Positions 296 to 63,999 of a stretch of DNA of 64,000 nt are shown here, piece by piece; the stretch's first letter is position 1; each line of letters opens with the position of its first letter. This DNA is from Nannocystis bainbridge (GTDB taxonomy: Bacteria; Myxococcota_A; Polyangia; Nannocystales; Nannocystaceae). The notes below the pieces were generated by a model that worked only from the letters and a program-made list of their open reading frames with translations, was not told the origin of the DNA and searched no databases. The translations under genes were made by a program, and so were the position numbers. Location: NCBI RefSeq assembly GCF_028368995.1, contig NZ_JAQNDL010000001.1, positions 3,488,001 to 3,552,000 of the forward strand, given 5' to 3'.

Positions 296-1039
296 TCACC
301 CGAAGGCCGGCTCGCGGCCGTCGAGCGTGCCGGCCGCGCCGACCGCGGCGAAGCGGAAGAACAGGTCCTCGGCGAACCACCGCCGGGCCAGCGCCGCGCG
401 GGCCGCCGCCTGGTGGTTCGAGCCGGCCCACGCGAATTGCTCGAGGCTGTCGGCGTCGTCCCACACGCTGAACGTGACCGGGCGGATCCACGGCAGCTCG
501 CCGATCCCCAGCGCCGCGCGCAGGCCGGGCGCGCGCACCAGCCGGCTGTTGATCGCCGGCACCCGCGACCAGAAGTTGAAGAACCCGCGCAGGCGCAGGC
601 GCGCCCGCGTGATCGCGACCATGGGTAGCCTTTGGGGCAGGTCCGAAAGGCCAGGTCCGAACGGACAGGTCCCGCCCCAGCTACCGCGGCCGCGCGCGGT
701 CAGCAGCGCCAGCGTCCACGCCTCGCTGGCGCGCGCGCGGTAGTCGGCGAACAGCGCGCTGCGGGCGAAGAAGTCCGCGAGCACATGCTCCGAAGACCAG
801 GTCGCGACCAGGGCGTAGCGCGACAGGTCGGGCTTCGCCGAGAAGCCGAGGCCGCCGCCGCTGCCGCACAGGCGCCAGAACTGCAGGCCCGGGGTGGCCG
901 CCAGCGGGGCGCGGGCGCGGCCCATCTGCTTGAAGGCCCACAGCCGTCGGCCGGGCGGGAACCGCAGCACCGTGACCGTCGTGATCGTCGCGCCGGGCGG
1001 CGGGCGATGGACCCACCGGAGAGCGTGCTCGCCCGGCAA
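296..1039 (-). CDS. Spheroidene monooxygenase CrtA-like protein
   Basis: WAFKQMG...PGLQFWRLCGSGGGLGFS, GIGELPW..TFSVW and WFAEDLFFRF motifs; start uncertain. Confidence 0.7.
   Translation of the reverse strand: MPGEHALRWVHRPPPGATITTVTVLRFPPGRRLWAFKQMGRARAPLAATPGLQFWRLCGSGGGLGFSAKPDLSRYALVATWSSEHVLADFFARSALFADYRARASEAWTLALLTARGRGSWGGTCPFGPGLSDLPQRLPMVAITRARLRLRGFFNFWSRVPAINSRLVRAPGLRAALGIGELPWIRPVTFSVWDDADSLEQFAWAGSNHQAAARAALARRWFAEDLFFRFAAVGAAGTLDGREPAFG
635..672. repeat. 14-bp-period array (intragenic, crtA-like)
   Basis: CAGG cores at 638, 652, 666. Confidence 0.75.
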
Positions 1040-1043
1040 GCGC

Positions 1044-1799
1044 TCACGACCCCGGCAGGAACTGCACCGCGTGTTGCGGGATCGCCGTCGCCGCGCCCAC
1101 CAACACCTGGTCGCCCCAGCGCTCGACCCACAGCGCCCGGTCGGCCGCCGCGCGGTAGACGTAGGTCGCCACCCGCGGCAGCGCCGGCCGCCCGTGCATG
1201 CCGACCCCGGCCGCGCTGGCCTGGCCGCGCCGCTCGAGCGCGTAAGTGTGCTCCTGGTGCGGGATGTGGCGCGGCGGCTCGCCCGACAGCCCGTGGCCGC
1301 GGACCGGCTCGGCCAGCAGCCACCGCTCCTGGTCCGGCGAACCGACCAGCCAGCGCTGACGATCGGCGTCGGTCATCACCGCGATCACCGTGGCGGTGGC
1401 GCCCTCCTTGAGGTTGACCACGCCGTCGACCAGGTAGTCGCCGTCGAGGTTGGGGTCGCCGGTCTCGATGACGATGACGTCGCCCTGGCGCAGCGAGGTG
1501 AGGGTGAGCTCGGGCCCCTCGGGGGTGTCGGGCGCGGCGCGCGGGACGGGTGCGGGCTGAAGCCGGCCCTGGAGGCGCTGGGCGACGCGCGCGCGGATCT
1601 TCTGGCTGATCGGGTCTGCGGGGATCGATCCGGAGGTGGTCGAGCCGGAGGACGCGGCGGCGAGGGCGAGCTGCGGGCCGTCACCCTCGGTGAGCTGCCG
1701 CCGGTCGCCCCAGTCGCGCAGGCGTCGGGCCGCGAGGATCCCGACCCAAAAAGCACCGGCGATGGTCATGGCGGCGAGCAAGGAGGCGAGCGTCAACAT
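1044..1799 (-). CDS. Membrane-anchored DUF4178-like protein
   Basis: N-terminal TM (MLTLASLLAA...), LRQGDVI...DYLVDG, YALERRGQA and LWVERWG motifs; ATG at 1799. Confidence 0.55.
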   Translation of the reverse strand: MLTLASLLAAMTIAGAFWVGILAARRLRDWGDRRQLTEGDGPQLALAAASSGSTTSGSIPADPISQKIRARVAQRLQGRLQPAPVPRAAPDTPEGPELTLTSLRQGDVIVIETGDPNLDGDYLVDGVVNLKEGATATVIAVMTDADRQRWLVGSPDQERWLLAEPVRGHGLSGEPPRHIPHQEHTYALERRGQASAAGVGMHGRPALPRVATYVYRAAADRALWVERWGDQVLVGAATAIPQHAVQFLPGS

Positions 1800-2042
1800 G
1801 CGGGAGCGGAGGCCCTCGACGCTTGCTTGTAGCACGCGGCCCGGGCCCGCGGGAGGCCACACCCGTCAGGACCCTCGCCCGCCCGCCCTGCCGCGCGCTC
1901 GCCCCGGGAGATCGCCGCCCGCGCGAGGTGCGACGCCCGGGCCGGGTCCGCGGCCGGTCCGACGGCGCCTGCCGTGCCCGCGACCTCCCGCTGGCTCGTG
2001 GCCGCAGGCGCGCGCGCCGACGCGCCCACCGGCGGGCCGCAA

Positions 2043-2123
2043 GGACATGTCCCTTCGGACATGTTAAAAAGACGCGGAGCGGGAATCACAGGCACGTTAG
2101 GACATGTCCGAACGTGCATGTTC
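2043..2123. repeat. 14-bp-period arrays (intergenic)
   Basis: Cores at 2046/2060 and at 2089/2103/2117. Confidence 0.8.
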
Positions 2124-2207
2124 GGAGCCGAGCGCCGGCGGCACCGTCTCCGCGAACGTGCGCGACCCATGGCGAAAGCGCCCAGCACCGTCGCCGCTCC
2201 TCGTGTT

Positions 2208-2273
2208 GCGCCTGTCACTCAGGACATGTCGAAAAGCACATTGTCACAAGCACATGTACTTTGGAACATGTCC
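2208..2273. repeat. 14-bp-period array, 3' of hrpB
   Basis: Cores at 2211, 2225, 2239, 2253, 2267. Confidence 0.85.
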
Positions 2274-2287: not shown

Positions 2288-4837
2288 TCACCGCCGCGGG
2301 GCCGGCGGCGCGGCGGTGCGTGGGTCGTCGGGCCACGAGTGGCGCGGGTAGCGGCGCATCAGCGCCTTGCGGACCTCGGGGTAGTGGCGGTCCCAGAACC
2401 CGGAGAGGTCGGTCGTGACCTGCTCGGCGCGGCCGTTCGGGGCCAGCAGATGCAGCACCAGCGGCACCTTGCCGCCGGCGATGTGCGGCCCGCGGCTCAT
2501 GCCGAAGAAGTCTTGCAGGCGCGACGCCAGCCACGGCGGCTTGTCGGGCTCGTAGTGCACGGCCACGCGCCGGCCTCCGGGCAGCTGCACGTGCGTCGGC
2601 GCCAGCCGCTCGAGCCCGCCGCCCGCGGCCACGCGCCCGAGCAGCTGGCCCATCAGGTCGGCCGCGCGCAGCTCGGCGAAGCTGGTCCGGCCCTCGCAAA
2701 GCTCGGCCAGCACCGCGCGCGCGACCGCCTCGGTGATCACCGGCGCCCCCGGCACGTGCGCCGCCACGAACGCCGAGCGCGCCATCAGCCCGCGCAGCGC
2801 CTCCGCGTCGGCCACGAACCGCTCGGGCCCGGCCGCCTGCGCCTGCGCGCGCAGCAGCTCGCTGGCCGCGGGCGGCAGCTTCGCCCCCGTCGTGCGCTCG
2901 AGCAGCAGCCCCATGTACCGCAGCTCGCGCGCCCCCTCGACCCGCTCGCGCGCCGCGTTCCACTGCAGCTCGTCGCGCTCCTCGATCTCGTCGCACAGCT
3001 GGTCGATCAACCACTCCGGCTCGATCGCGCAGGCGCTGCGCACCAGCACCTGCGGCCCGCGGTCGGCCTCGCGCCGCTGCTCGACCTCCAGCGCCAGCAG
3101 CCACGGCGCCGTGCGCACCACCGACCCCGGCCCGAGCCGCGCCGCCCCGCCGCCCGCCAGCGCCAGCGCGCGGAAGCCCCCGACCTCGTCGCGCGCCTGC
3201 GCCACCCGCTCGGGGAAGGCCGCCAGCAGGGCCATGCGCAGCCTGTCCTCTCGTTCCTGTTCCTTGATACCTAGCTCTTTGGACCTGTCCCGAGAGTCAT
3301 GCGGAAGCGCGCGCAGTAGCTGGTCGCGGACCTGCAGCGCGCGGCGGGCCGGCCCGCCCAGCAGGCCGCGCTCGTCGCCGCGGCGGCGCAGCTTCTCGAG
3401 GTCGGCGAGGTCGACCAGCACGTCGGCGTCGGCGTCGCACGAGGCCAGCGCGCCTGACGGGCGGATCGATCGCTCGGACAGCAGCGCCGCCGCGCCGCAG
3501 GCCAGCCCCGGCACGCCGCGATCGATCCCCTCGCACAGCAGCCGCCCGAGCCGCGGGTGGAGCGGGAACGCCAGCATGCGCCGGCCCAGCGGCGTCACCT
3601 GGCCTGCAGGACCGGTCGCCCCCAGCCGCCGCAGCAGCGCCTCGCCGGCCTGCAGCGACGCCGCTGGCGGCGCCTCGAACCATGGGAACGCGGCTGGATC
3701 GGCGACCGCGAACGCGTGCAGGTCGAGCAGCGCGCTCGCCAGATCGACCCGGTGGATCTCCGGCGGCGTGTGCTCGGGCCGGCGGTCGTGGTCGACCTGG
3801 GCGTACAGCCGCAGGCACCGGCCAGGCCGCGTGCGCCCGGCTCGCCCGGCGCGCTGGGCCGCCGACGCGCGTGACACCTTGCCGAGCTGCAGCGTCGGGA
3901 TCCCCGTCCACGGGTCGTGCGCCGCCACCCGCGCCAGCCCGCCGTCGATCACCGCCGCGATCCCGTCGATCGTCACCGACGTCTCGGCGACGTTGGTGCT
4001 GAGGATCAGCTTCCTCTGGGGACATGGCCGAACGGCCAGGTCCTGCGCGGCCGGCGGCAGCTCGCCGTGCAGCGGCACCACCATCATCCCGTGGTGGGCG
4101 GCGAACCCGGCGCAGGCCTCGGCCGCGCGGGCGATCTCGCGGGCCCCGGGCAGGAACACCAGGACATCGCCGTCGAGCCCCTCGTCGACCAGCTTCGCCA
4201 GCGCCCGCAGCACCCCCGAGTGGAGCTCGTTCGGCTCGCCGAGGTGCTCGATCTCCACCGGGAACATCCGCCCGGCGCTGGTGATCCGGGCGCACGGCTC
4301 GGCTGCTCCTTCGGACAGGTAACTCGCGACCGCGGCGCCGTCGAGGGTCGCCGACATCACGACGAGCTTGAGGTCGGGCCGGTCCGAGCGCTGGAGCTGG
4401 CGCAGCAGCGCGAGCCCCACGTCGCCGTCGATGTGGCGCTCGTGGAACTCGTCGAGCACGACCGCGCCGACGTCGCGCAGCGCCGGGTCGGCGTGCAGCT
4501 TGCGCGCCAGCAGGCCCTCGGTGATGAAGCGCAGGCGCGTCGTCGGACCGACCGCCGACTCGAAGCGGACCTGGTAGCCGACGGTCGCGCCGAGCGGTTC
4601 GCCGAGGCTCTCGGCCACCCGCGCCGCGGTCATGCGCGCCGCCAGGCGGCGCGGCTGCAGCACCAGCACCTCGCGCTCGCCGGCCAGCCCGGCCTGCAGC
4701 AGCGCCAGCGGCACGCGCGTGGTCTTGCCGGCCCCGGGCGGCGCCTCGATCACCGCGCAGGGCGATCGCTGCAGGGCCGCGACGATGTCGGCGAGGACCT
4801 CGTCGATCGGCAGCTGCGAGGGTGCGCGCGGGGCCAC
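2288..4837 (-). CDS. hrpB: ATP-dependent RNA helicase HrpB
   Basis: APPGAGKTT, DEFHER, MSAT, STNVAETSVTI, QRAGRAGR, and C-terminal LLAPNGRAEQVTTDLSGFW..YP...YPRHSWP; start chosen at GTG 4837. Confidence 0.95.
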   Translation of the reverse strand: MAPRAPSQLPIDEVLADIVAALQRSPCAVIEAPPGAGKTTRVPLALLQAGLAGEREVLVLQPRRLAARMTAARVAESLGEPLGATVGYQVRFESAVGPTTRLRFITEGLLARKLHADPALRDVGAVVLDEFHERHIDGDVGLALLRQLQRSDRPDLKLVVMSATLDGAAVASYLSEGAAEPCARITSAGRMFPVEIEHLGEPNELHSGVLRALAKLVDEGLDGDVLVFLPGAREIARAAEACAGFAAHHGMMVVPLHGELPPAAQDLAVRPCPQRKLILSTNVAETSVTIDGIAAVIDGGLARVAAHDPWTGIPTLQLGKVSRASAAQRAGRAGRTRPGRCLRLYAQVDHDRRPEHTPPEIHRVDLASALLDLHAFAVADPAAFPWFEAPPAASLQAGEALLRRLGATGPAGQVTPLGRRMLAFPLHPRLGRLLCEGIDRGVPGLACGAAALLSERSIRPSGALASCDADADVLVDLADLEKLRRRGDERGLLGGPARRALQVRDQLLRALPHDSRDRSKELGIKEQEREDRLRMALLAAFPERVAQARDEVGGFRALALAGGGAARLGPGSVVRTAPWLLALEVEQRREADRGPQVLVRSACAIEPEWLIDQLCDEIEERDELQWNAARERVEGARELRYMGLLLERTTGAKLPPAASELLRAQAQAAGPERFVADAEALRGLMARSAFVAAHVPGAPVITEAVARAVLAELCEGRTSFAELRAADLMGQLLGRVAAGGGLERLAPTHVQLPGGRRVAVHYEPDKPPWLASRLQDFFGMSRGPHIAGGKVPLVLHLLAPNGRAEQVTTDLSGFWDRHYPEVRKALMRRYPRHSWPDDPRTAAPPAPRR
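3239..3304. repeat. 14-bp-period array (intragenic, hrpB)
   Basis: Cores at 3242, 3256, 3270, 3284, 3298. Confidence 0.8.
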
Positions 4838-5274: not shown

Positions 5275-7427
5275 CGCTGCGCGGCGCGACGCCCCTGCGC
5301 GTGGCCCTCGCGGGCAACCCGAACGTCGGCAAGACCAGCCTCTTCAACGAGCTGACCGGGTCGCGCCACAAGGTCGGCAACTACGCCGGCGTCACCGTCG
5401 AGACCCGCGCCGGCGCCGTCGTCGCTCGCCTCGCCCCCGCGCGGCCGATCACGATCGTCGACCTGCCCGGCACCTACAGCCTCACGCCGATCGCCGAGGA
5501 CGAGGCCGTCGCGTTCCGCTGCCTCACCGGCGCCGACGACCAGCCGCCCGACGTCGTCGCCCTCGTGCTCGACGCCGCCAACCTGGCCCGCAACCTCTAC
5601 CTCGCCGTCCAGCTGCTCGAGCTCGGGCGCCCGCTGGTCGTCGCCCTCAACATGATGGACGTCGCCGCCGAGGCCGGCGCACCGGTCGACCCCGCCGCCC
5701 TGGCCCGCGCCCTCGGCGTGCCGGTCTTGCCGACGGTCGCGCGCACCGGCGAGGGCATCGCGCGCCTGGTCGAAGGGCTAGGTTCCATCGAACATGTCCC
5801 TTCGGACACCTCGCCGCTGCGCGCCCGCCTTCTGACGGGCGACGACGCCGTGCCGCCGCCGCCCGGGACCGAACTGGCGCGCTGGCGCTGGCTGGTCTCG
5901 GCGGCCGCGGCCGGCACCCTCGACCTGGCCGCGCCGACCGCCGACGAGCGCGTCGCTCTGGCCGCGCTGGCGCCCGCGGCCGTGACCGCGGCCGCGCACG
6001 CGCGGGTGATCGCCCGCTACCGCGAGGTCGACGCCCTGCTGGCCGAGCTCGGCTTCACCGCCGCCCAGCGCGAGCGGGCCCCGGCGATGACCCGCTCGGC
6101 GGCGATCGACCGCGTGCTGACCCACCGCGTGTGGGGCCTGGCGATCTTCGTCCTCGTCATGGCGACGATCTTCAGCTCGATCTTCACCTGGGCCGAGCCG
6201 ATCATGGGCGCGATCGAGGCGCTCATCAGCTGGCTCTCGGGACAGGTCCGCGGACCGCTCGGGCCCGGCGTCTTCACCGACCTGCTGACCCAGGGCGTGA
6301 TCGCCGGCGCCGGCAACGTGCTGGTGTTCGTGCCGCAGATCGCCCTGCTGTTCCTGCTGCTCGGCCTGCTCGAGGACTCGGGCTACATGGCCCGCGCGGC
6401 GTTCCTGGTCGACCGGCTGATGGCCAGGGTCGGCCTGCACGGGCGCGCCTTCGTCCCGCTGCTGAGCGGCTACGCCTGCGCCATCCCGGCCATCCTCGGC
6501 ACCCGCACGATCACCGACCCGCGCGACCGCCTGGCCACGATCCTCATGATCCCGTTCATGAGCTGCAGCGCGCGCCTGCCGATCTACGTCCTCTTCATCA
6601 GCGCGCTGTTCCCCGCCGACGACCGCGTCGGCCCGTTCACCGTCGGCAGCCTCATGCTGGTCGGCTTCTACGCGCTGTCGACGGTGTCGGCCCTGCTCGT
6701 CGGCGCGTTCTGGAAGCGCACCGCCCTGCGCGGCCCGACCCCGCCGTTCGTGCTCGAGCTGCCGCCGTACCGGCTGCCGCGCCTGCGCAACACCCTGCTC
6801 CACGTCTACGACCGCACCGCCGACTTCGTCCGCCAGGCCGGCACCGTCATCCTCGCGGTCACCGTCGTGCTGTGGGTGCTGCTCAGCTTCCCGCGCCCGC
6901 CCGACGCGCCGCCGGTGCCGGTCGACGTCGACCCGGTCGCGCATGTCGAGCCGGACATGTCCGAAACGCCAGACTCGCCGACCCCGCCGCGCGACGAGGA
7001 CTCGCCGATCGTGCACTCGATCGGCGGCCGGATCGGCAAGGCGATCGAGCCGGCGCTGCTGCCGATGGGCCAGGACTTCCGCATGGGCATCGCCATCCTC
7101 GGCAGCTTCGCCGCCCGCGAGGTCATGGTCAGCACGCTCGGCCTGGTCTACGGCATCGAAGAGGACGACGACGACCAGACCTCGCTGCGCGAGAAGCTCC
7201 GCGAGGCCCGCGAGCCCGACGGCTCGCGCCGCCACACCCCCCTGAAGGGCCTGGCGGCGATGATCTTCTTCGTCTACGCCTGCCAGTGCATGTCGACGCT
7301 GGCGGTGGTGCGCCGCGAGACCGGCGCGTGGAAGTGGCCGCTGGTGATGTTCACCACCATGTCGGCCCTGGCCTACGCGCTGGCGGTGCTGGTCTACCAG
7401 GTCGGCCTCGCGCTCGGCTACACCTGA
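5271..7427 (+). CDS. feoB: Ferrous iron transport protein B
   Basis: GNPNVGKTS, GNYAGVTVE, DLPGTYSL and NMMD GTPase motifs; LEDSGYMARAAF, PFMSCSARLP gate motifs. Confidence 0.97.
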   Translation: MTLRGATPLRVALAGNPNVGKTSLFNELTGSRHKVGNYAGVTVETRAGAVVARLAPARPITIVDLPGTYSLTPIAEDEAVAFRCLTGADDQPPDVVALVLDAANLARNLYLAVQLLELGRPLVVALNMMDVAAEAGAPVDPAALARALGVPVLPTVARTGEGIARLVEGLGSIEHVPSDTSPLRARLLTGDDAVPPPPGTELARWRWLVSAAAAGTLDLAAPTADERVALAALAPAAVTAAAHARVIARYREVDALLAELGFTAAQRERAPAMTRSAAIDRVLTHRVWGLAIFVLVMATIFSSIFTWAEPIMGAIEALISWLSGQVRGPLGPGVFTDLLTQGVIAGAGNVLVFVPQIALLFLLLGLLEDSGYMARAAFLVDRLMARVGLHGRAFVPLLSGYACAIPAILGTRTITDPRDRLATILMIPFMSCSARLPIYVLFISALFPADDRVGPFTVGSLMLVGFYALSTVSALLVGAFWKRTALRGPTPPFVLELPPYRLPRLRNTLLHVYDRTADFVRQAGTVILAVTVVLWVLLSFPRPPDAPPVPVDVDPVAHVEPDMSETPDSPTPPRDEDSPIVHSIGGRIGKAIEPALLPMGQDFRMGIAILGSFAAREVMVSTLGLVYGIEEDDDDQTSLREKLREAREPDGSRRHTPLKGLAAMIFFVYACQCMSTLAVVRRETGAWKWPLVMFTTMSALAYALAVLVYQVGLALGYT

Positions 7428-7504
7428 CCTGGCCCTGTGAGCATGTCGGATCGGTCATGCCCGATCGGACCTATTCGAATGGACCTGTTCTTTCGAACAG
7501 GTCC
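7425..7504. repeat. 14-bp-period array between convergent feoB and mscL
   Basis: Cores at 7428, 7442, 7456, 7470, 7484, 7498. Confidence 0.85.
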
Positions 7505-8064: not shown

Positions 8065-8484
8065 CTACAGCTTGTCCGACGCGATGCCGACCGAGCCGAC
8101 GCCCGCCTCGTGGGCGGCCGCCATCAGGCGAATGACCTCGCCGTACTTGACCCCGGGCGCGGCGTCGATCGCCAGCTTGCCGTCGTTCTGAACCTTCGTG
8201 TTGGCCTGAAGCGCCGCGATCACGCCGACGGTGTCGCTGGCGATCACCTGCGTGCCGAGCTTGACGACCCCCGCGGTATCGATCGACAGCAGCAAGGTCG
8301 CGTTGGGGTCGGCCGGACCCTGCACCTTCGACTGGGTCGGGATGTCGAGCGGCATCTGCGTGTTGGTGGCCGGCGGCGCCGACACCATGAAGATGATCAG
8401 GAGGCACAGGAGCACGTCGACCAGCGGGGTCACGTTGATCTCGTTGAGGGCGTCGCCCTCGTCTCCGCCGACGCTGACTGCCAT
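8065..8484 (-). CDS. exbD: ExbD/TolR biopolymer transport protein
   Basis: EINVTPLVDVLLCLLIIFMV motif, KYGEVIRLM; ATG at 8484. Confidence 0.88.
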   Translation of the reverse strand: MAVSVGGDEGDALNEINVTPLVDVLLCLLIIFMVSAPPATNTQMPLDIPTQSKVQGPADPNATLLLSIDTAGVVKLGTQVIASDTVGVIAALQANTKVQNDGKLAIDAAPGVKYGEVIRLMAAAHEAGVGSVGIASDKL

Positions 8485-8578
8485 GGTGCGGCTCACGCTA
8501 GCGGGCCGCGGCCGCCGCGTAAAGCCCGGCCCCGATCGTCGGCGCACGCGCCGGGGTTTCCGCGATATCTTGCCGGCC

Positions 8579-9763
8579 ATGCTCCGCGCCGCCCTCGTCC
8601 TCGCCGTCGCGCTCGCCGGGACCGCCTGCAACGCGCCTGCGCCGGCCCCTGCCGCCAAGCCCGAGGCCGCCCCGAGCGCCCAGCCGACCCCGCAGCCGGC
8701 TCCGCCCGCGCCCGCCCCGGCGCCCGTCAGGGCCCGCGACCCCCTGTGCGAGGCCGGCGCGGCCCCCCTGGCGGCCCTGCGCGCGCACACCGGCGCGGCG
8801 TCGATCGCCTACGCCGGCACGCCGCTGCAGCAGTGGGTGGCGGCCAGCGACGCCGCCACGGGCCGTCACGACGACGCCGCGATCGCCGCGGTGCTGGTCG
8901 ACACCACCCCCGCCGGCTTCGCCTTCGTGCGCGCGCGCGTCGAGGGCTCGATCGCCCAGTGGATGCGCGACCGCCTCAAGCACGCCGCCGACGACAAGGA
9001 CGGCCGCGACGCCGCGTGGGCGGCCGCTCGCTGCGCCTGGGACGTGGCCCTGAAGCCGCTCGCGGCCGAGGTCGCCGGCGCCGAGCCGGGCCTCGCCGAG
9101 GACATCGACGCCGCCTTCGCCGCGGGCGAGGCGGCGCTCGCCGGCGGTGATACGACCGCGATCGACAAGGCGCTGCTGCCGGGCCACGAGGTGATCGAGA
9201 AGACCTGGTTCCGCCTGGCGCACCACCGCTTGATGCAGGCGCTGGCCGACGCGAAGGAGCACGGCGACCCGGTCCCGCTGGCCCGCGCGCGGGCCGTGTT
9301 CGAGGACCTGCGCGACCGCCTGAAGGACCGCAACAGCCCCGGCATCGCCGTCGTCGAGCTGGCCCTCGCGGCCCCGCCGAACAAGGTCGACGCCGCCAAG
9401 GTCGAGCGGGAGATCGCCGTGGCGGTGGCCAAGCGGGCCCGCAAGTACTGCGACGAGGCCCTCACCCCGGCCGCCAAGGGCCCGCTCGGCAGCGCGGCGG
9501 CGATGGCCACCACCGCCGAGGGCACGGCCTATACGCGAATTGTCCTTTCGGACATGTCCGAAAGGCTCAAGGACCAGGGCTTCGACGCGGCGGCGCACCT
9601 TCAGGCCTGGCAGGGCTACGCCGAGGCGGTCGCGGAGGCCGACGCCGACGAGGCGAAGCGGCTGAGCGGCGAGCTCGTGCAGTGGAACTGCGCCTACCAG
9701 CGCGCCCTGGCGATCCGCGAGTGCACGTCGTCGGCCGACGAGGTGTCGACGACGACACCTTGA
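8579..9763 (+). CDS. Hypothetical alpha-helical lipoprotein
   Basis: Lipobox-like LAGTAC, Pro/Ala tether, strong GC3 bias. Confidence 0.75.
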   Translation: MLRAALVLAVALAGTACNAPAPAPAAKPEAAPSAQPTPQPAPPAPAPAPVRARDPLCEAGAAPLAALRAHTGAASIAYAGTPLQQWVAASDAATGRHDDAAIAAVLVDTTPAGFAFVRARVEGSIAQWMRDRLKHAADDKDGRDAAWAAARCAWDVALKPLAAEVAGAEPGLAEDIDAAFAAGEAALAGGDTTAIDKALLPGHEVIEKTWFRLAHHRLMQALADAKEHGDPVPLARARAVFEDLRDRLKDRNSPGIAVVELALAAPPNKVDAAKVEREIAVAVAKRARKYCDEALTPAAKGPLGSAAAMATTAEGTAYTRIVLSDMSERLKDQGFDAAAHLQAWQGYAEAVAEADADEAKRLSGELVQWNCAYQRALAIRECTSSADEVSTTTP

Positions 9764-10219: not shown

Positions 10220-10399
10220 ATGCGCCACACAGGACTCGCCGCCCGCATGATTTTCGCCGAACGCTTCACGGCCGCCGTCATCGATCGGCCGTTCTACGCC
10301 GGACTCAAGATGGTCGCCGCACGCCCGCGCGTGAACGAGCCGATCGTCGTCGCTCCCGCCGAGCCCGCAGTGGCTGCGCCGATGCCGCGCGCGGCCTAG
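10220..10399 (+). CDS. Candidate 59-aa small protein (below ORF-track cutoff)
   Basis: ATG 10220 to TAG 10399: MRHTGLAARMIFAERFTAAVIDRPFYAGLKMVAARPRVNEPIVVAPAEPAVAAPMPRAA; mostly G/C third positions. Confidence 0.4.
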   Translation: MRHTGLAARMIFAERFTAAVIDRPFYAGLKMVAARPRVNEPIVVAPAEPAVAAPMPRAA

Positions 10400-10489: not shown

Positions 10490-10527
10490 GGACATGACCC
10501 TTCGAGCATGTGCTCAGGGCCATGTCC
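10490..10527. repeat. 14-bp-period array, 3' of the usp gene
   Basis: CATG cores at 10493, 10507, 10521. Confidence 0.85.
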
Positions 10528-13793: not shown

Positions 13794-14690
13794 ATGCCCA
13801 AGCTGTCCCACGAGGCGCTCGTCCAGCTGGTCCGTCACGCTCCGGCGCTGATCCCCGACCTGCTGTGGCCCGGCGAGGCCAGGACCGGACCGATCCGGAT
13901 CACCGCCGGCGAGTTCGTCGACCTCAACTTCGCCGAGCACCGGGCCGACGTGGTGCTCGGCCTCGGCGGCGCGGCCGACCGTCCCGCCGAGGCGCTGGTG
14001 GTCGAGGTCCAGGTCGAACGCGACCCTCGCAAGCGCTGGACCTGGCCGGTGTACGTCGCCGGCCTGCGCGCGCGCCTCGGCTGTCCGGTCACCCTCGTGG
14101 TCGTGTCGCTCGACCCCGAGGTGGCCCGCTGGTGCGCCGAGCCGATCGACCTCGGCCGCCGCCGCACCACCGTCCACCCGTGGGTGCTCGGGCCCGAGGC
14201 CGTGCCCGTGATCACCGACCTCGAGCGGGCCCGCGAGCTGCCCGAGCTGGCGGTGCTGTCGGTCGCGGCCCACGCCGCCGAACCCGGCGCCGAGCAGATC
14301 GCCCTCGTCGCCCTCGAGGCCACCCGCGAGCTCGACGACCAGCGGGGGATCCTCTATCCTGACTTCGTCGTCGCCCTCCTGGGCCGCGTGGCCCGCACCG
14401 CGCTGGAGAAGCTCCTCATGGCCAACGGACGCTGGGAACCGCTGAGTGACATGTTCCGCAAACCTTGGCTCGAAGGCATCGCCGAGGGCGAAGCCAAGGG
14501 GTTCGCGCTCGGCAGGGCCGACATGCTGCTCAAGCTGCTCCAGCTCAAAGGCTTCGCGGTGACCGAGGCCCAGCGCGGCCGCGTGCTCGACTGCCGCGAC
14601 GAGGCCCAGCTCGACGCCTGGGCCGGCCGCGTGCTGACGGCCACCCGCCTCGACGAAGTGTTCGACGAGCCGGGCCCGGGCCCGACCTGA
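13794..14690 (+). CDS. Rpn-like PD-(D/E)XK nuclease/putative transposase family protein
   Basis: ADVVL...VVEVQ...KRWTWPVY core; C-terminal EGIAEGEAKG...LDAWAGRVLTATRLDEVF tail typical of Rpn/DUF4351-like proteins. Confidence 0.7.
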   Translation: MPKLSHEALVQLVRHAPALIPDLLWPGEARTGPIRITAGEFVDLNFAEHRADVVLGLGGAADRPAEALVVEVQVERDPRKRWTWPVYVAGLRARLGCPVTLVVVSLDPEVARWCAEPIDLGRRRTTVHPWVLGPEAVPVITDLERARELPELAVLSVAAHAAEPGAEQIALVALEATRELDDQRGILYPDFVVALLGRVARTALEKLLMANGRWEPLSDMFRKPWLEGIAEGEAKGFALGRADMLLKLLQLKGFAVTEAQRGRVLDCRDEAQLDAWAGRVLTATRLDEVFDEPGPGPT

Positions 14691-14723: not shown

Positions 14724-14775
14724 AAACCTGGCCTCAAGGGCATGTCCCAAAGAACATGTCCATGAAGACATCTCA
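14724..14775. repeat. 14-bp-period array, 3' of the Rpn-like gene
   Basis: Cores at 14727, 14741, 14755, 14769. Confidence 0.85.
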
Positions 14776-14954: not shown

Positions 14955-16130
14955 ATGACGGACGGCGACTCACTCGGCGTGCACGACCTCCCCGAAGCCA
15001 CTGACACCCCCGCGACGGACGGGACCTCGCTCGAGCTGCGAGTCGTCGACGGCATGCCGACCTGGTTCGGCCGCCGGCTCGCGCGCGCGCTGCTGCGGCT
15101 GGTCAGCATGGAGGAGAACAAGCCCGCGCAGCTGACCCAGGTCGTCACGCCGACGGCCGGCTATTTCCGCCGCGACCGCCACGTCCACCCCGCCGTCGAC
15201 CCCGGCACCTACCGCCTGCAGATCACCGGCGTCGCCACCCCGCGCGTCCTGACCCTGCCCGAGCTGCTGGCCCTGCCCCGCGAGACCCGCGTGTGCGTGC
15301 AGGAGTGCGCCGGCAATGGCAACCACCTCCAGGGCTCGGCCGGGCTGTGCGGCCAGGCCGTTTGGGAGGGCCCGAGCTTCGCCAGCCTGCTCGAGCTGTG
15401 CGGCGGCCCGGGCCTCGCCACGCACTTCGCCTGTCACGGCCTCGACGACCTCGGCTTCCTCAAGCGCGGCTACCACTACGGACTGTCGCTCGACGAGCTC
15501 ACGCGCGCGCGGGCGATCGTGGCCGTGACGATGAACGGCGAGCCGCTGTCGCGCCGCCACGGCTTCCCGTCGCGCCTGATCGTGCCGCGCATCTACTCGA
15601 TGTCGCACGTCAAGTGGCTCGGCCACATCGAGGGCAAGACGCAGCCGCACATGGGCATCCACAACCGCTTCGTCTTCACCAACAAGGAGAAGCGCGGCGA
15701 CAAGTGGGTGCGCGTGCAGGCGCGATGGATCGGCCTCAAGTCGATCGTGTCCGACTGCCGCGCGGCCCAGGGCGGCGGCTGGCTGCTGCGCGGGGCGGCG
15801 TGGGGCGGCGAGCGCCCGGTCGCCGCCGTCGAGGTCAGCACCGACGGCGGCCTCTCGTGGCAGCGCGCCGACCTGCGGCCGATCTCCGAACAGGTCGCCC
15901 GCGACGCCCGCCTGGCCTCCGGCGAGGTCGACGGCGCGTGGTCGGTGTTCTCGTTCCGCTGGCAGCCGCCCGGCCCCGGCACCTACAAGATCGGCTCGCG
16001 GGTGATCGACGCGGACGGCAACGTCCAGGCCCTCGACAACGACCCCAACGTGCACGGCCACTTCAACCAGACCCGCGTCAAGTGGCGCATGGTCACCGTG
16101 CCCGAGAACCGGCTTCCGGCTGGCGCTTGA
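14955..16130 (+). CDS. Sulfite oxidase-family molybdopterin oxidoreductase
   Basis: QECAGN Mo-ligand Cys, MNGEPL..HGFP.RLIVP, VKWL, VEVSTDGG.SW dimerization domain; true start may lie further downstream. Confidence 0.9.
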   Translation: MTDGDSLGVHDLPEATDTPATDGTSLELRVVDGMPTWFGRRLARALLRLVSMEENKPAQLTQVVTPTAGYFRRDRHVHPAVDPGTYRLQITGVATPRVLTLPELLALPRETRVCVQECAGNGNHLQGSAGLCGQAVWEGPSFASLLELCGGPGLATHFACHGLDDLGFLKRGYHYGLSLDELTRARAIVAVTMNGEPLSRRHGFPSRLIVPRIYSMSHVKWLGHIEGKTQPHMGIHNRFVFTNKEKRGDKWVRVQARWIGLKSIVSDCRAAQGGGWLLRGAAWGGERPVAAVEVSTDGGLSWQRADLRPISEQVARDARLASGEVDGAWSVFSFRWQPPGPGTYKIGSRVIDADGNVQALDNDPNVHGHFNQTRVKWRMVTVPENRLPAGA

Positions 16131-16181
16131 GACATGCCCTGAAGGGCATGTCCTGGCGGGCATGCTCATCCGAGCATGTCC
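16130..16181. repeat. 14-bp-period array, 3' of the sulfite oxidase-like gene
   Basis: CATG cores at 16133, 16147, 16161, 16175. Confidence 0.9.
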
Positions 16182-16372: not shown

Positions 16373-16392
16373 CTGCTCACCTGACCTTCAGG

Positions 16393-20166
<3,774 letters not shown>

Positions 20167-20172
<6 letters not shown>

Positions 20173-20230
20173 GTTCTGAAGTTCCTGTTCCTGAAGACCT
20201 GGCGGGAAGGACCTGTCCTGAAGGACTGGC
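20167..20230. repeat. 14-bp-period array filling the plsR-like/plsA-like spacer
   Basis: Cores at 20170, 20184, 20198, 20212, 20226. Confidence 0.85.
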
Positions 20231-22033
<1,803 letters not shown>

Positions 22034-22445: not shown

Positions 22446-22735
22446 CGGCTGCGGCGAGCCGAGGCGCGGACACTGCATGTCTCGGAGGACAGCCGACTGC
22501 TTCGGACGCCTCGACCACGGCGTCGGCTGCGGTGAGCCGAGGTCTCGGTCGCTACATGTCCTGAAGGACAGCCGACCGCTTCGGGGCGCCACGTCTGCGG
22601 CTGCGGTGAGCCAAGGTCCCGGTCGCTACATGTCCTGAAGGACAGCGACTGCTTCGGAGGCCTCGACCGCGGCGTCGGCTGCGGTGAGCCGATCGGTCGC
22701 CACATGTCCCGAAGGACAGCCACTGCTTCGGGCGC
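22446..22735. repeat. Four tandem 74-78-bp composite palindromic units
   Basis: Units start at 22446, 22524, 22598, 22676; consensus CGGCTGCGGTGAGCCG..GGTCGCTACATGTCCTGAAGGACAGCCGACTGCTTCGG. Confidence 0.9.
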
Positions 22736-24934: not shown

Positions 24935-25014
24935 CCACCTGGCCTCACGGGCATGTCATCAAGGACATGTCATGAGTAACATGTCGCTCGGGGCATGTCC
25001 TTTCGGGCATGCCC
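24935..25014. repeat. 14-bp-period array between convergent genes
   Basis: Cores at 24938, 24952, 24966, 24980, 24994, 25008. Confidence 0.9.
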
Positions 25015-25018
25015 AGTT

Positions 25019-36934: not shown

Positions 36935-36964
36935 CCGAGAGGGCGGCCTGGGCCGCCCTCTCGG
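36935..36964 (-). terminator. Hairpin downstream of gltI
   Basis: 13-bp stem CCGAGAGGGCGGC/GCCGCCCTCTCGG followed by CGTTT on the minus strand. Confidence 0.6.
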
Positions 36965-36995
36965 ACATGTCCTTACGGACAGCTCACTGTCGATT

Positions 36996-50318: not shown

Positions 50319-50646
50319 CAGAGACCTTTCCGGATCGCGTGCGGATGATAACGGGCGGGGCATCTGGTGACAAGGTTGCACGTCGGCGCGATCGTTCGCG
50401 GCGTTTCTCGGGCTTCGAGAAGGTCGCCGAGGTCGCGAGCGAAAACGCGCCACACGCGCCGGGCTCGCCGAAGATGCCGCTGGGCCCGGCAATCGGCCAG
50501 GTCGTGAGTTGACGCGAGCCCGCGGCCAGGGTCGGGCGATCTCACCGACAGATCTCCGAACGCCCAGCAGTCCTTAAACGCCGAAGGCCCGGCGTGGCCG
50601 GGCATCCTGGCTTTCGAGACAGGCTGTCCTTCAGGACAGCTTTCGA

Positions 50647-52737
50647 TCAACCCGGCTCGAGCACGAACGGGTACGAGACGATGACCGAACCGCCGCCTTC
50701 GGGCTTGGGGAAGGTCCAGCGTTTGACCGCCTGGGCGATGCAGGAGCCGACGGCCGGGTCCTTCAACGTGCTCTCCTGGACCACCGCCGTGGGCACCTTG
50801 CCGGTGCCGCCGATGGTGAACTGGACGGCGACGCGGCCCTTGGCGTTGGGGTCACGCGCGAGGGCCTGGTTGTAGCAGTAGCGGACCTCGTTGATGTGCG
50901 CGCGGACGATGCGGCGAATGATGTCCTTGTCGAGCGCGCCCTGGACCTCGGCCTTGGCCTGACGGACCGTCGGCACGCGGGTGCCGCGGCCGCCGAAGCC
51001 GGCGCCTGCGCCACGACCGTAGCCGGAGCCCGTGCCGCCGCCGCCGCCCTTGCCGATGAGGCCCGTGTTGCCGAGGCCGATCGTGCCCTCGCCGGTGCCG
51101 CCGCCGCCGCGGCCGGTGCCGACCAGGCCGAGGCCGCCGACGCCGTACGCTTCGCCGACCTCGGTGCCGGTGAGGCCGCCCCACACGTCCGCGTCGTCGT
51201 TGCCGACCGCGAACGCGCCGCCGTACGGCGAGGCGAGGAAGTGGCCGCTCTCGGCGCTCATGACCCCGAGGATGCCGGCCTGGCGCGCGGCCATGTCGGG
51301 GTCGAAGTTACGGGCCATCTGCGGGATGGCGTCCTTGGGGCCCTTCATGGCGTAGAGGCCCGACTTGCTCTTCGAGGTGGGCTTGCCCATCTTGCCCTCC
51401 TCGCCCTTGTGACGCTGACCGGTGCCGCCGGCCTCGTCGTCGGAGTTCTCCATGTCCTCCGGCGGCGGCTCCTCCTCCTCCGGCGGCTTGTCGGGCTGGT
51501 TGAGGTAACCGACGAAGCGGTTCTCTTCCATCATCTCGTCGAGGCTGAGGTTGCCGGCCTCGTTGGGGATCAGGTGCGTGAGCACCAGCAGGCTGCCGAT
51601 GACCACGAACGAGGCGCCGTTGTAGATCCAGAACGGCTTGTCGGTCTCGCTGCCGCCCTTGATCACCGCGCCCGGCGCGACCGAGTTCACGTAAAAGGTG
51701 ACGTCCTGGTACTTGACCCGCGCCGTCGCTCCGGGCGGCAGCGGGAAGCTGAACGACGAGCCCTGCGCGCCCGCGCGACCGGTGGCGACCAGCTGCTGCA
51801 GCGTGATCGTCTGGCCGTCGAAGGTGACCTCACCGCTCATGTTCTGGGTGAAGTTGAGCGCGAACTCGTGGTCGCTGCCGCGGACCAGCGGGAAGCCGTT
51901 GGGCTCGGGCAGGCCGGCCGGCGGCACGTGGAACGACGCGCCGTGACCCTCGCCGATCGTGAAGTTCTTGTTGACGTAGTCGCCGGTGCGGATGAGGCCC
52001 ATGCTGAACGGCACGAGGCCCGCGATCGCCAGCAGCATGCCGATCGCCGCCAGACCGTTTCCGGGCGGGGTCGGGCGCGGCGTGCCCTGCTCGATCGAAT
52101 CCTGGACCTTCTTGCCGTAGCCGGGCCAGTCCGCGTTCACGTCGCTGAAGAACACCGCCGCGCCAGCGACCAGCATCGCCCCGCCGATGGCGAGGAAGAT
52201 CGGCGCCTGCGACTTGCGGTTGCGCAGCTGACCGACGTGCTGCACGTCGAGCACCGTCGTGCCGTACATCGCCACGACCTCGGCCACGCGCGAGCCGCCC
52301 TGATTCTCGACCTCGCTGAGGTCGATCTGGATCGGCGCCCGCGTCGCCATCGGCGCGGCCATCGGCGCAGCGGCGACCGCCACAGCCACGGGCGCGGCCA
52401 CCTGCGACGGGGCCGGCGCGACCGCGGCCTGCTGCCGGACGAAGCCGACCTCGAGCCGGTAGGGCCCGAAGTTCAAGGCGTCGCCATCGTGCAGCACCGC
52501 GTTCTTGTCGATCCGCTGGCCGTTGAGCACGGTGCCCGCCGCGCTCCCGAGATCGATCACCCGCACCTCTTCGCCGGACACCTCGATCACGGCGTGCATG
52601 CGGGCCACGGCCTCGTCATCCAGGCAAACATGGCTGCTCTTCAGCTTGCCAATCTTGATGACATCCTGTGTCAGCGTCTGGGTGTCGACGAGCTGGTCGC
52701 CGTAAAAGACTTTGATAGCGAGCGTCTTGGTGGACAT
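50647..52737 (-). CDS. gltG: GltG/PglI-like FHA + TM + Gly-rich + TonB_C protein
   Basis: IKIGKL.SSH..LDD..VARMHAVIE FHA, EEGKMG motif, IRRIVRAHINEVRYCY...V.YPF TonB_C. Confidence 0.85.
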   Translation of the reverse strand: MSTKTLAIKVFYGDQLVDTQTLTQDVIKIGKLKSSHVCLDDEAVARMHAVIEVSGEEVRVIDLGSAAGTVLNGQRIDKNAVLHDGDALNFGPYRLEVGFVRQQAAVAPAPSQVAAPVAVAVAAAPMAAPMATRAPIQIDLSEVENQGGSRVAEVVAMYGTTVLDVQHVGQLRNRKSQAPIFLAIGGAMLVAGAAVFFSDVNADWPGYGKKVQDSIEQGTPRPTPPGNGLAAIGMLLAIAGLVPFSMGLIRTGDYVNKNFTIGEGHGASFHVPPAGLPEPNGFPLVRGSDHEFALNFTQNMSGEVTFDGQTITLQQLVATGRAGAQGSSFSFPLPPGATARVKYQDVTFYVNSVAPGAVIKGGSETDKPFWIYNGASFVVIGSLLVLTHLIPNEAGNLSLDEMMEENRFVGYLNQPDKPPEEEEPPPEDMENSDDEAGGTGQRHKGEEGKMGKPTSKSKSGLYAMKGPKDAIPQMARNFDPDMAARQAGILGVMSAESGHFLASPYGGAFAVGNDDADVWGGLTGTEVGEAYGVGGLGLVGTGRGGGGTGEGTIGLGNTGLIGKGGGGGTGSGYGRGAGAGFGGRGTRVPTVRQAKAEVQGALDKDIIRRIVRAHINEVRYCYNQALARDPNAKGRVAVQFTIGGTGKVPTAVVQESTLKDPAVGSCIAQAVKRWTFPKPEGGGSVIVSYPFVLEPG

Positions 52738-61987: not shown

Positions 61988-61991
61988 CGCG

Positions 61992-62429
61992 TCACGGATT
62001 TCGATCCGCTTCGAAGGCCCCGGGGATCCAAGAGATCCGCGGGGCCTTCTCGCGTGGGTCGTCTTCGGCAGCGAGCGAGTCGTCGCTCGTCAGCACGCTG
62101 ACGACGTCGAAGCGCACGGCCACGGTCTCCCACAAGTCGCGGCCGACCAGCCACGCCGCTGCACCGCGTCGCAGCCGGGCCTGCTTCCGCGAGTCGACCG
62201 TCTCCTCCGGCGTGCCGGCCCGATCGTCTCCGCGGCTGCGGACCTCCACGAATACGTATGTGTCGACGCGATCGTCCACGCCGGCAGGCACGAGCCCGAC
62301 CAAATCGAGCTCCACACCACCCGCGCGGACGTTGCGGTCGACGACGAGGAGGCCGCGCGCCTCAAGGAAGCGTGCGGCCTGTTCCTCCGCCAGTTGGCCG
62401 CGCACCCGGGTAGAGGGTGGCGCGGGCAT
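61992..62429 (-). CDS. yraN: YraN family (UPF0102) putative endonuclease
   Basis: GQLAEEQAARFL..G..V..RN...ELDLV..FVEVRSR...RFDVV. Confidence 0.9.
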   Translation of the reverse strand: MPAPPSTRVRGQLAEEQAARFLEARGLLVVDRNVRAGGVELDLVGLVPAGVDDRVDTYVFVEVRSRGDDRAGTPEETVDSRKQARLRRGAAAWLVGRDLWETVAVRFDVVSVLTSDDSLAAEDDPREKAPRISWIPGAFEADRNP

Positions 62430-62435
62430 CGTGGC

Positions 62436-62852
62436 TCAGTCGCCCTGGGGCTCGGTCGACTCGCTGCTGGCCGAGGCGAGCCCTTCGTTGCCGTAGCCGC
62501 CGAGGCGGGCGCGAATGCGGGCGGCGTTGCCGCTGAGGTTGCGCAGGTAGTAGAGCTTGGCCTTGCGGACCTTGCCGCGGCTGACGAGCTCGACCTTCAC
62601 GACGCGGGGCGAGTTGACCGCCCAGACGCGCTCGACGCCGACACCGTGGGAGATCTTCCGAACGGTGAAGGAGCCGCGGGCGCCGCCACGCTTGCGGTGG
62701 ATGCAGACGCCTTGGAAGACCTGGATGCGATCCTTGCCGCCTTCGGAGATCTTCGCGTGGACGCGAATGGTGTCACCGGGACGGAACTCGGGGACATCGG
62801 CCCGCTTGTAGGAGGCCTCGATCGCTTCAATCAACGGGTTACTGTTGCTCAT
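62436..62852 (-). CDS. rplS: 50S ribosomal protein L19
   Basis: [44 protein letters not shown]. Confidence 0.98.
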
Positions 62853-63999
62853 GGCGGAGCTCCGAAGGGCGCGTGGAGCGGCAAGTCTTGAGTTCAGCCA
62901 GTGCGTCGGCGACAAGACGTGCTGCCGCTTCCACCGGCTGGGGGCCGGAAGAGTCATTCATCGGGGTCGTTTCTGCAAGTCCCGCGGCGAGTTTGGACGC
63001 CTGCAGAATCACCGGTGAAAACGCCGCCTCGAGCCCCCGGAGGCCCGTGGATGAGGGCGCAGAGGCGGCTCCCGGGGCGTTCGTGACGGGCCGTGCGAGA
63101 TCTCCCGTACCGGCGCAGGCCAGCACCAGTACGAGCGGCGCTGAGAGATCTCCCGTTCCCGAGGCCGCGAGCAGATCGAGCAACGGCGCGGCTCCGCGGG
63201 CGAGCGGCAGCCCGTCCGCGGGACCGAGCGCGACCAACCGCGGGGCGGCGCCGTGGCGACGGCGGAGTTCGCGGGCGAGATCTTTGAGGCTGCGAAACTG
63301 GGCCGCGCGGGGGACGTCGCCGAGGTCGGAGGCCCGACCCGGCGCGACGACCCGCAGCTCCGCCCCGCCGGCGCTCGCGGCAGCGGCTAGGGCGGCGAGC
63401 AGGGCTGACCTTTCGGACATGTCCTTTTCGCCCTGCCCGAACTGCGCGACGAGGTAGACCGGCGCACCCGCGGGCAGCGACCGCTGCGGCCGCAGGTCGG
63501 GCCGCAGGGCCCAGGTGCGCCGCCAGGCCTGCTCGCGGCGCCAGCGAGCGACTTCGGCGTGGGCGCCGGCGAGCAGCACGTCGGGTACACCGAGGCCGCG
63601 GAAGTCGGGCGGGCGGGTGAAGTGCGGGTGCTCGAGCCAGGCACCATGATCTTCAGGACATGTCTCGGACGACATGTCCTGAAGCGAGAAGCTGTCGCGC
63701 GCGGCCGACTCGGGGTTGCCGAGCACGCCCTCGCGCAGACGGGCGACGGCCTCGATGATCGCTAGCGCGGCGACCTCGCCGCCATTGAGGACGAAGTCGC
63801 CGATCGACAGGCACTCGTCGACGAAGTGCTCGCGCACGCGGTCGTCGATGCCCTCGTAGCGGCCACACAGGAGGCCGATCCGCGGGACCGTGGCGAGCCG
63901 CTCGGCGACCCGCTGGTCGAAGCGCGGGCCGGCGGGGGTGAGGAGGATCCGGTGCATCGGCCCGCGCTCGCGCGTGACGTGCTCGAGCGCCGCGACGAC
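62839..63999 (-). CDS. trmD: tRNA (guanine37-N1)-methyltransferase with long C-terminal extension, 5'-truncated by the window edge
   Basis: [41 protein letters not shown]; frame open to the window end. Confidence 0.95.
63401..63438. repeat. 14-bp-period array (intragenic, trmD extension)
   Basis: Cores at 63404, 63418, 63432. Confidence 0.75.
63642..63679. repeat. 14-bp-period array (intragenic, trmD core)
   Basis: CATG cores at 63645, 63659, 63673. Confidence 0.85.

Follow-up and report, generated by a model that had tools for sequence, protein, structure and literature searches.

The 64,000-nt window analyzed here (positions 3,488,001 to 3,552,000 of contig NZ_JAQNDL010000001.1, Nannocystis bainbridge, RefSeq assembly GCF_028368995.1) and the genome that surrounds it carry a dispersed family of degenerate arrays built from a near-palindromic 14-bp unit, GGACATGTCC followed by four variable bases, which recurs in exact register past stop codons, most densely between convergent genes, and also in frame within genes. 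We favor the reading that these arrays constitute a lineage-specific palindromic micro-repeat family at transcript 3′ ends, akin to the repetitive extragenic palindromic (REP) sequences and bacterial interspersed mosaic elements (BIMEs) on the one hand and to the Rickettsia palindromic elements (RPEs) on the other, and we put the chances of its being correct at about even. The likeness to REPs and BIMEs follows from position, copy number, regular clustering, clade restriction and unit-number turnover, and that to RPEs from the in-frame copies in genes. An earlier sequence-only reading of the window had listed the arrays by the positions of their four-base cores, and the sequence at those places reads as it described; of the explanations it offered, that of a new REP-like element agrees best with the data.

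Register and anatomy of the repeat

The genome of the window comprises 11.05 Mb in five contigs, has a G+C content of 71.5% and is 90.5% complete. The sequence-only reading had proposed an autocorrelation check of the 14-bp period, and pairs at 14, 28 and 42 bp indeed stand far above the Markov background in the window, as do genome-wide pairs at 14 bp above those at 13 and 15 bp. The window holds 28 matches to GGACATGTCC with at most one mismatch, compared to a mean of 1.5 in dinucleotide shuffles (0 of 100 shuffles reach 28), and 78 matches with at most two mismatches where 25.8 are expected. Pairs of matches spaced 14, 28 or 42 bp number 23, against a mean of 0.06 and a maximum of 2 in 200 first-order Markov resamples. 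Genome-wide, the exact GGACATGTCC decamer is present in 956 copies and ranks fourth among 10-mer palindromes, although it is 40% A+T. Distances between matches with at most two mismatches fall at 14 bp in 2655 cases, compared to 21 at 13 bp and 10 at 15 bp, and longer-range peaks follow at 28 bp (1235), 42 bp (953), 56 bp (461) and 70 bp (193).

Chaining seeds in phase, removing duplicates and requiring at least two units yielded 4356 arrays genome-wide, 1915 of them with at least three units and 1141 with at least four; the longest has 12. Together they cover 166,620 bp, or 1.5% of the genome, and 8259 of the 39,940 genomic CATG tetranucleotides fall in arrays when 14-bp flanks are included. 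Some of the two-unit arrays are chance pairs: inside coding sequence (CDS) and at the loosest threshold, the 14-bp excess over other offsets is ~5-fold. Even and odd unit numbers showed no pattern.

The earlier claim that the spacing is constrained is borne out by the rarity of off-phase neighbors, which make up ~1% of adjacent units, next to 4-nt spacers that are close to random. It had also been remarked that the units diverge while the spacing holds, unlike in a slippage-derived repeat, and this agrees with the output of Tandem Repeats Finder (TRF), which picks up four of the window arrays with low scores but neither of the two longest. A slippage-derived minisatellite does not fit this result together with the spacer identity between adjacent units (0.32 at lag 1 against a background of 0.27), and a miniature inverted-repeat transposable element does not fit the absence of a fixed element with a common internal sequence, the spacers being near random. 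Avoidance of CATG of the restriction-modification type was not seen, the observed-to-expected ratio of CATG in coding sequence being 1.1. Two other tetranucleotides stand out in coding sequence genome-wide, namely CTAG, which is almost absent (606 observed, 6426 expected, ratio 0.09), and AATT, which is over-represented 4.5-fold.

Of the units in convergent regions, ~76% have the CATG core; the outer unit positions match in 60–78%, and the spacer has no consensus across units. Better conserved, as a module, is the palindrome centered on the spacer: TGTCC-N4-GGACA is present 1987 times in exact form genome-wide, compared to 0–16 copies for each of the other spacings from 0 to 11. Units at the ends of arrays keep their inward half and lose the outer one (left-hand cores CCTG, GCTG or GATG; right-hand cores CAGG, CAGC or CATC), and the element is therefore best described as a series of 18-bp palindromic modules, CATGTCC-N4-GGACATG, that overlap by a common CATG, an overlap from which the 14-bp register results. 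When arrays of the same length were compared, no position-specific sequence emerged outside the repeated motif, so the arrays are not copies of one fixed element. The middle dinucleotide of the spacer is biased toward AA/TT, AT, CG and GA/TC, and palindromic spacers are in slight excess (0.099 observed against a null of ~0.074). A minority of arrays, some of them long, contain internal duplications of 14, 28 or 42 bp.

Placement, turnover and taxonomic range

Gene positions were taken from our own codon-score caller, which is crude (8212 genes, 84% coding) and agrees in the window with Pfam for hrpB, feoB, mscL and others. On these calls, arrays with at least four units occur 519 times in convergent, 359 times in tandem and 28 times in divergent regions, whose intergenic totals are 281, 929 and 509 kb, respectively, and 235 times in called CDS. 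Among intergenic regions of 100–399 bp, at least two units are present in 67–68% of the convergent, 21–35% of the tandem and 4–16% of the divergent ones, and at least four units in 43–47%, 7–12% and 1%, respectively. In tandem regions, the upstream stop precedes the array by a median of 19 bp, and a median of 161 bp separates the array end from the start that follows. In convergent regions, the two stops are 17 and 21 bp away from the array, with the stop codon inside the first unit in 10%, and the longest arrays span entire convergent regions, 6 bp from either stop. Loci with three exact in-phase CATG cores are intergenic in 89% of 801 cases. Arrays that are followed by a start within less than 40 bp probably sit inside operons; their cores are less often CATG (0.52 compared to 0.70–0.76 elsewhere) and more often CAGG/CCTG (0.30), and they fold more weakly per unit (−4.1 compared to −5.2 to −6.0 kcal/mol).

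Copies inside genes had gone unmentioned in the sequence-only reading. Deep inside called CDS, 1508 seeds have a partner (at most three mismatches) at 14 bp, compared to 9–95 at the other offsets from 9 to 20. Counting as in frame those arrays that lie at least 150 bp inside an open reading frame (ORF) that is coding in the same frame over the 120 nt on either side, we obtained 886 of 4354 (~20%), comprising 610 with two units, 174 with three and 102 with at least four. Two such arrays lie in feoB (5776..5813 and 6939..6962). The second falls in a loop insertion of 25–45 amino acids in FeoB and is translated in frame; genera g2, g5, g22 and g27 lack the insertion, g4 has a shorter version without CATG units, and six Nannocystis-type genomes hold between one and four CATG cores there, with a 42-bp (14-codon) duplication in one of the six. 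The stretch at 3242-3298 in hrpB is also translated in frame and is conserved within the genus; its status as an insertion is not supported, there being no clear insertion relative to other genera. Elsewhere in the genome, the arrays in called ORFs at G000:C3:1816605-1816726 and C3:1347886-1348049 show an exact super-period of 42 bp, equal to three units or 14 codons, and may represent array-derived sequence that evolves as a coding tandem repeat.

Turnover was followed in orthologous intergenic regions of five related genomes, whose genes are 80–96% identical. The feoB/mscL region contains six units in the window, two in G005, three in G007, none in G001 and two in G010, and is not alignable in G003. 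Four relatives have 5–6 units in the region at 24911, yet spacers and flanks differ. The three-unit array at 10490-10527 is nearly identical in six genomes while the surrounding intergenic DNA has diverged, and the array at 20167-20232 is kept in five relatives, one of which has 15 extra bp. Copies and units are gained and lost quickly, and copies persist where they are least harmful, that is, past stops (chiefly convergent), in short same-strand gaps and in in-frame protein linkers.

The element is abundant in Nannocystis (genus g1), rarer in the sister genera g2 and g4, and at background level in 14 others. The pattern CATG-N10-CATG-N10-CATG occurs 1670 times in the genome of the window (G000), 1005–1162 times in five other large g1 genomes, 2–62 times in five smaller g1 genomes that are 64–88% complete, and 0–4 times in 20 genomes of other genera, compared to 0–2 for a reversed control pattern. 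Enrichment of the TGTCC-N4-GGACA module extends to g2 (87–169) and g4 (67–696), and the 14 other genera of the family are near the control level (0–20, control 0–10). At loci in g2, g4 and a g1 metagenome-assembled genome, the module stands after stop codons, with 0 of 14 between divergent genes in this small sample. Viral contigs with the phased motif numbered zero.

Known systems and competing explanations

Two papers describe REPs and BIMEs as clade-limited, imperfectly palindromic short sequences, mostly extragenic and numbering hundreds to thousands per genome, that sit at gene 3′ ends and between operon genes and have proposed roles in termination, mRNA stability and chromosome organization (PMC2817692; PMC3333891), BIMEs being defined by regularly spaced palindromic units (PMC2817692). 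The present arrays share with their counterparts in enterobacteria, pseudomonads and xanthomonads the position at gene 3′ ends and between operon genes, the restriction to a genus or clade and the variable unit number, and they consist of hairpin-capable short imperfect palindromes in more than 100 copies and in regularly spaced clusters of 2–12 units. The statement of the sequence-only reading that no described system has this architecture was, in view of the BIME definition, too strong; phase-locked iteron arrays in which each repeat binds a dimer are known, too, from plasmid centromeres and MetJ operators. No Rfam match and no paper on the family came to light: the only gathering-score matches of the window in Rfam are two tRNAs, no array has a match with an E-value below 0.6, and at the level of titles and abstracts the literature on GGACATGTCC and on Nannocystis or myxobacterial repeats, palindromes and terminators yielded no description of such repeats.

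The alternating orientation of BIMEs has no counterpart here, since the unit is its own reverse complement. Binding of IHF, gyrase or DNA polymerase I and an influence on mRNA stability are further characteristics of REPs and BIMEs. REPs are ~20–40 nt long, and the family departs from them in its 14-bp unit (an 18-bp module with shared ends), its exact phase, its random spacers, the ~20% of copies in frame inside genes and the lack of a RAYT/Y1 transposase. The latter (PF01797) has zero matches in the 90.5%-complete genome, while a control search detected it in 6 of 14 reference genomes, and the known route of REP mobilization is thus missing. On account of the absent RAYT, the other unit size, the exact phase and the random spacers, we file the element as a variant of the REP/BIME kind and not as a member.

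RPEs are found in intergenic DNA as well as in protein-coding genes, into whose products the in-frame copies introduce a peptide at tolerant loops; they measure ~100–150 bp and have family consensus sequences. The in-frame palindromic repeats in feoB and the 886 ORF-internal arrays are like them, and the feoB copy is an in-frame palindromic insert that is missing from orthologues, hrpB showing no such clear insertion. Unlike RPEs, the present units measure 14 bp, have no consensus outside the motif and belong to an unrelated host lineage. A further resemblance is that GGACATGTCC is, letter for letter, the p53 half-site (RRRCWWGYYY) of binding studies; because the P53 domain (PF00870) has zero matches in the genome at E up to 1, this is a coincidence.

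If the arrays are indeed a REP/BIME- and RPE-like family, those at gene ends would be transcribed and, because every unit is near-palindromic, a transcript of either strand would fold into clusters of ~10-bp stems with 4-nt loops. Such clusters could act as transcript-end structures that shield the 3′ end from exonucleases, and may pause or attenuate read-through between convergent genes. The conserved CATG and the strict phase, maintained without compensatory pairing, favor a sequence-specific machinery, other than a RAYT transposase, that would make or read the units; one speculative route to the exact phase is that a unit is inserted at CATG and regenerates CATG on both sides. No candidate binding protein was found in a screen that covered PF01797 and PF00870 only. 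We regard as improbable the more far-reaching proposal that a dedicated, sequence-specific factor restricted to Nannocystis and the two sister genera polymerizes on the 14-bp-phased units, as DNA or as nascent hairpin RNA, and forms a bidirectional gene-end boundary, which would provide a protein-dependent terminator or insulator for about two thirds of convergent pairs, with the factor itself or a relative seeding new units, including those in genes.

Folding was compared in a sample of 600 of the 993 arrays with 4–6 units. The mean RNA minimum free energy of the real arrays is −27.3 kcal/mol, compared to −16.3 kcal/mol for mononucleotide shuffles and −25.8 kcal/mol for arrays rebuilt from units swapped between arrays (p = 8e-6 against the real ones). 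Since the unit-swapped arrays fold nearly as well, most of the folding potential comes from the palindromic word, and array-specific complementarity adds only ~1.5 kcal/mol. Seven of the eight array strands tested in the window have z of −2.9 or lower: 2208..2273 reaches −25.1 kcal/mol (z −2.9), 7425..7504 gives z −3.4 and −3.8, 10490..10527 forms one nested hairpin of −31 kcal/mol (z −7.1), 16130..16181 forms two perfect 9–11-bp hairpins with 4-nt loops (z −5.5), and 24935..25014 gives z −4.8 and −4.1.

A number of observations weigh against the reading as a REP/BIME- and RPE-like family at transcript ends. Compensation between pairing partners in adjacent units is weak, in that position 3 is G in 0.29 of units when its partner at position 8 is C and still in 0.20 when position 8 is T, and mutual information is at most 0.023 bits for every position pair. 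Complementarity between adjacent units at the six non-core positions (1–3 and 8–10) is 0.537, compared to a background of 0.520, and what is conserved is the motif, not the structure. The well-conserved array 20167..20232 folds no better than its shuffles (z +1.7). No T-tract follows the arrays, the next 12 nt containing at least five T in 3.6% (tandem) to 5% (convergent) of cases, and the T fraction downstream is 0.09–0.28. Canonical hairpin-plus-T terminators also occur in this genome, and their depletion from convergent regions with arrays (0.11 per region compared to 0.27 without, by a crude detector) is modest, at ~0.74-fold per non-array base; mutual exclusion of the two was rejected, the depletion being largely gone after correction for non-array length. 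Spacers without a master sequence make spread by copy-and-paste hard to picture, and the missing RAYT and the crudeness of the gene calls count on the same side.

According to a rival explanation that we consider fairly unlikely, the units are double-stranded DNA sites for an abundant sequence-specific protein, bound as one dimer per 14-bp unit at ~120-degree turns, which would build a short helical filament where genes end. Such a filament could work as an insulator or roadblock where transcription converges, or else form a topological barrier or a gyrase-type site; a gyrase-type or topological role has been proposed for BIME-2. The strict 14-bp phase with near-random spacers argues for such a protein, as do the conservation of each half-site on its own with almost no compensatory pairing, the frequency of the CATG core in convergent regions and the convergent occupancy, which is more than twice the tandem one, and the clade-limited range suits a clade-limited factor. 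The sequence statistics, moreover, appear symmetric regardless of the direction of transcription: in tandem regions, G is more frequent at position 3 (0.265) than C is at position 8 (0.209), and T is more frequent than A at mirrored positions, but this small sense-strand G/T excess has the direction of the ordinary coding-strand skew, and an unoriented convergent control shifts similarly. Degenerate short tandem repeats of variable number, whose constant period does not correspond to an integral number of helical turns, are also found in the iteron and operator arrays that bind one dimer per repeat, such as the MetJ metboxes, ParR/parC, TubR/tubC and the omega heptads; those, however, are one or a few promoter or centromere loci with a known protein, whereas here thousands of arrays stand at gene ends. 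A roadblock would hurt in the coding sequences that contain the 886 in-frame arrays, and arrays fill short gaps in probable operons. The fast change of unit number at orthologous sites and the lack of a candidate among the two families screened also speak against the explanation, and a barrier at the DNA level does not need a median distance of 19 bp from the stop.

It is less probable still that the arrays are a selfish or mutational by-product without function, generated by sequence-specific insertion or slippage and distributed solely as purifying selection against copies in promoters and at most coding positions has left them. The in-frame copies in genes together with the lineage-specific feoB insertion would fit this picture, and so would the fast unit-number turnover, the internal duplications of 14, 28 and 42 bp in some long arrays and the near-absence from divergent regions. 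Yet some arrays, such as 10490-10527, are nearly identical in six species amid diverged intergenic DNA, and CATG and phase have been retained next to spacers saturated with change, which implies that constraint continues to act. The quality of the cores and the strength of the folds vary with context, and arrays hug stop codons rather than occupying any promoter-free place.

To the proposal that the arrays are factor-independent intrinsic terminators, that is, bidirectional hairpins selected for RNA structure only, we give little credence, although the arrays share with intrinsic and bidirectional terminators G+C-rich hairpins just past stops that are convergent-enriched and usable from both strands. 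Besides this position and the strong folding on both strands, it can be said for the proposal that some convergent regions consist of an array and nothing else, and that 73% of array-free convergent regions are also without a canonical terminator (crude scan). The missing U-tract and the conservation of sequence rather than pairing run counter to it, a signal of structure alone needs neither a CATG core nor an exact 14-bp period, and copies stand within genes and operons. The canonical hairpin-plus-T type also coexists with the arrays, in one case (16340-16374) within the same intergenic region. Finally, a parS/matS-like organizing signal bound by a partition or macrodomain protein, which the sequence-only reading had put forward and for which only the general idea of dispersed palindromic sites speaks, is scarcely credible given thousands of sites that are tied to gene 3′ ends and present in genes (886 of 4354 in frame), at a density of 9–76 arrays in each full 250 kb across the five contigs and both GC-skew arms, without restriction to a domain.

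If the favored reading of a REP/BIME- and RPE-like family is correct, most convergent-gene gaps and 1.5% of an 11-Mb genome would be built from one 14-bp word in register. All positional hallmarks of REPs and BIMEs would then be present without RAYT, the only known enzyme of REP mobilization, and in-frame entry into coding sequence would occur at a scale otherwise associated with Rickettsia. The family would offer a tractable case for how very-high-G+C bacteria with few U-tract terminators end their transcripts and for the origin and spread of palindromic repeats without RAYT, and the contrast between three genera with the element and 14 without it provides a computational handle on the responsible factor. 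In practical terms, the arrays would have consequences in Nannocystis wherever operons are predicted, terminators annotated or biosynthetic gene clusters engineered.

Individual arrays and neighboring features of the window

Of the loci listed by the sequence-only reading, those at 3242-3298 and 50606-50637 are weak, and the array caller did not detect them. About half of the listed loci fall within ORFs rather than intergenic DNA. Among the array-bearing ORFs of the window, hrpB and feoB have Pfam support and the others come from the codon-score caller.

In convergent regions, six units at 7425..7504 nearly fill the stretch between feoB and mscL, with the feoB stop within the first unit; four units at 16130..16181 begin at the stop of a molybdopterin oxidoreductase gene; and six units at 24935..25014 are separated from the stops on either side by 24 bp and 4 bp. 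Downstream of hrpB (2288..4837, minus strand; Pfam), the tandem intergenic region contains two units that amount to one CATGTCC-N4-GGACATG module (2043..2066), a further 2–3 units (2086..2123) and five units (2208..2273) that end 14 bp from the hrpB stop. Four units at 14724..14775 stand in another tandem region, 33 bp past the stop of 13794..14690(+), while three units at 10490..10527 follow the stop of a minus-strand Usp-family gene by 21 bp and two units at 36963..36986 follow that of a 4046-aa ORF, 36996..49136(-), by 9 bp. The five degenerate units at 20167..20232, mostly with CCTG cores, fill the 58 bp that separate two genes of the same strand, probably within an operon. At 50603..50643, two weak interleaved pairs, CCTG/CAGG and GCTG/CAGC, lie 3–20 bp past the stop of 50647..52737(-).

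Within ORFs, three units with CAGG cores at 635..672 (cores 638-666) are reported by TRF at period 14 and lie in ORF 296..1039(-), the coding score of which dips across the array. The stretch 3239..3304 (cores 3242-3298: CCTG/CCTG/CCTA/CCTG/CATG), in a variable HrpB linker, is a doubtful member of the family, and two units at 4020..4043 (4023/4037) also lie within the hrpB coding sequence. Of the two feoB arrays, the three units at 5776..5813 (5793/5807) are kept in 5/5 relatives compared, and the two in-frame units at 6939..6962 (6942/6956) belong to the Nannocystis-specific insertion in the FeoB loop. Two units at 9536..9559 (9539/9553), inside CDS 8231..9763(+), are conserved in five relatives, and the two-core locus 14450/14464 is likewise inside an ORF. 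The called CDS 30082..30900(-) contains a CCTG/CAGG pair at 30294..30317 (30297/30311) and three units at 30464..30501 (30467/30481), and CDS 31532..34549(-) contains two units at 33554..33577 (33557/33571). ORF 62839..64206(-), which is weakly coding, has 2–3 units at 63401..63438 (63404-63432), in a weakly coding part, and three in-phase CATG cores at 63642..63679 (63645-63673).

The four pairs reported in 22476-22717 proved to be four single TGTCC-N4-GGACA modules (22476..22723), one per copy of a 74-bp tandem repeat. This repeat (22445-22767) has 3.8–3.9 copies with 76–80% matches and lies upstream of a NifU/rhodanese/glutaredoxin gene; five related genomes carry different, unrelated repeats in the same intergenic region. 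Further repeats in the window include 20-bp tandem repeats at 36551-36810 (up to 4.9 copies, 79–92% matches), located in the 443-bp gap before the 4046-aa ORF 36996..49136(-), and a 65-bp direct repeat at 29993-30127 (2.1 copies, 94% identical). Within the 4046-aa ORF itself, degenerate 15-bp-period repeats at 47408-47920 (up to 17.7 copies) probably encode a repetitive Ala/Glu/Lys-rich segment.

The canonical terminator at 16340-16374(-) is of textbook form, with a 15-bp stem followed by TTTTTGCGTTT, and stands directly past the stop of a 1259-aa BcrAD/BadFG-type gene, in the same intergenic region as the four-unit array 16130-16181, which abuts the opposite gene. At L103 (G008:C165), a canonical terminator with a GC-hairpin and a T-run lies ~60 bp before the array at locus position 1500, and ~16 bp on from it follows a three-unit array with two identical spacers, which looks like a recent 14-bp duplication. 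One RNA-library contig from related organisms spans 16747-21049, including 20167-20232, with no transcript start, end or strand readable from it, and the contigs from related organisms in four metatranscriptome/metagenome runs, which were compared at contig level only and share at most 0.31 of words, break at diverged intergenic regions. Lastly, at 10000-10420, a small ORF (10247..10399, 50 aa) and ~150 bp upstream of it are almost invariant in six genomes, across which the rest of the intergenic region has diverged, and this conserved block could be a small gene or a regulatory RNA.

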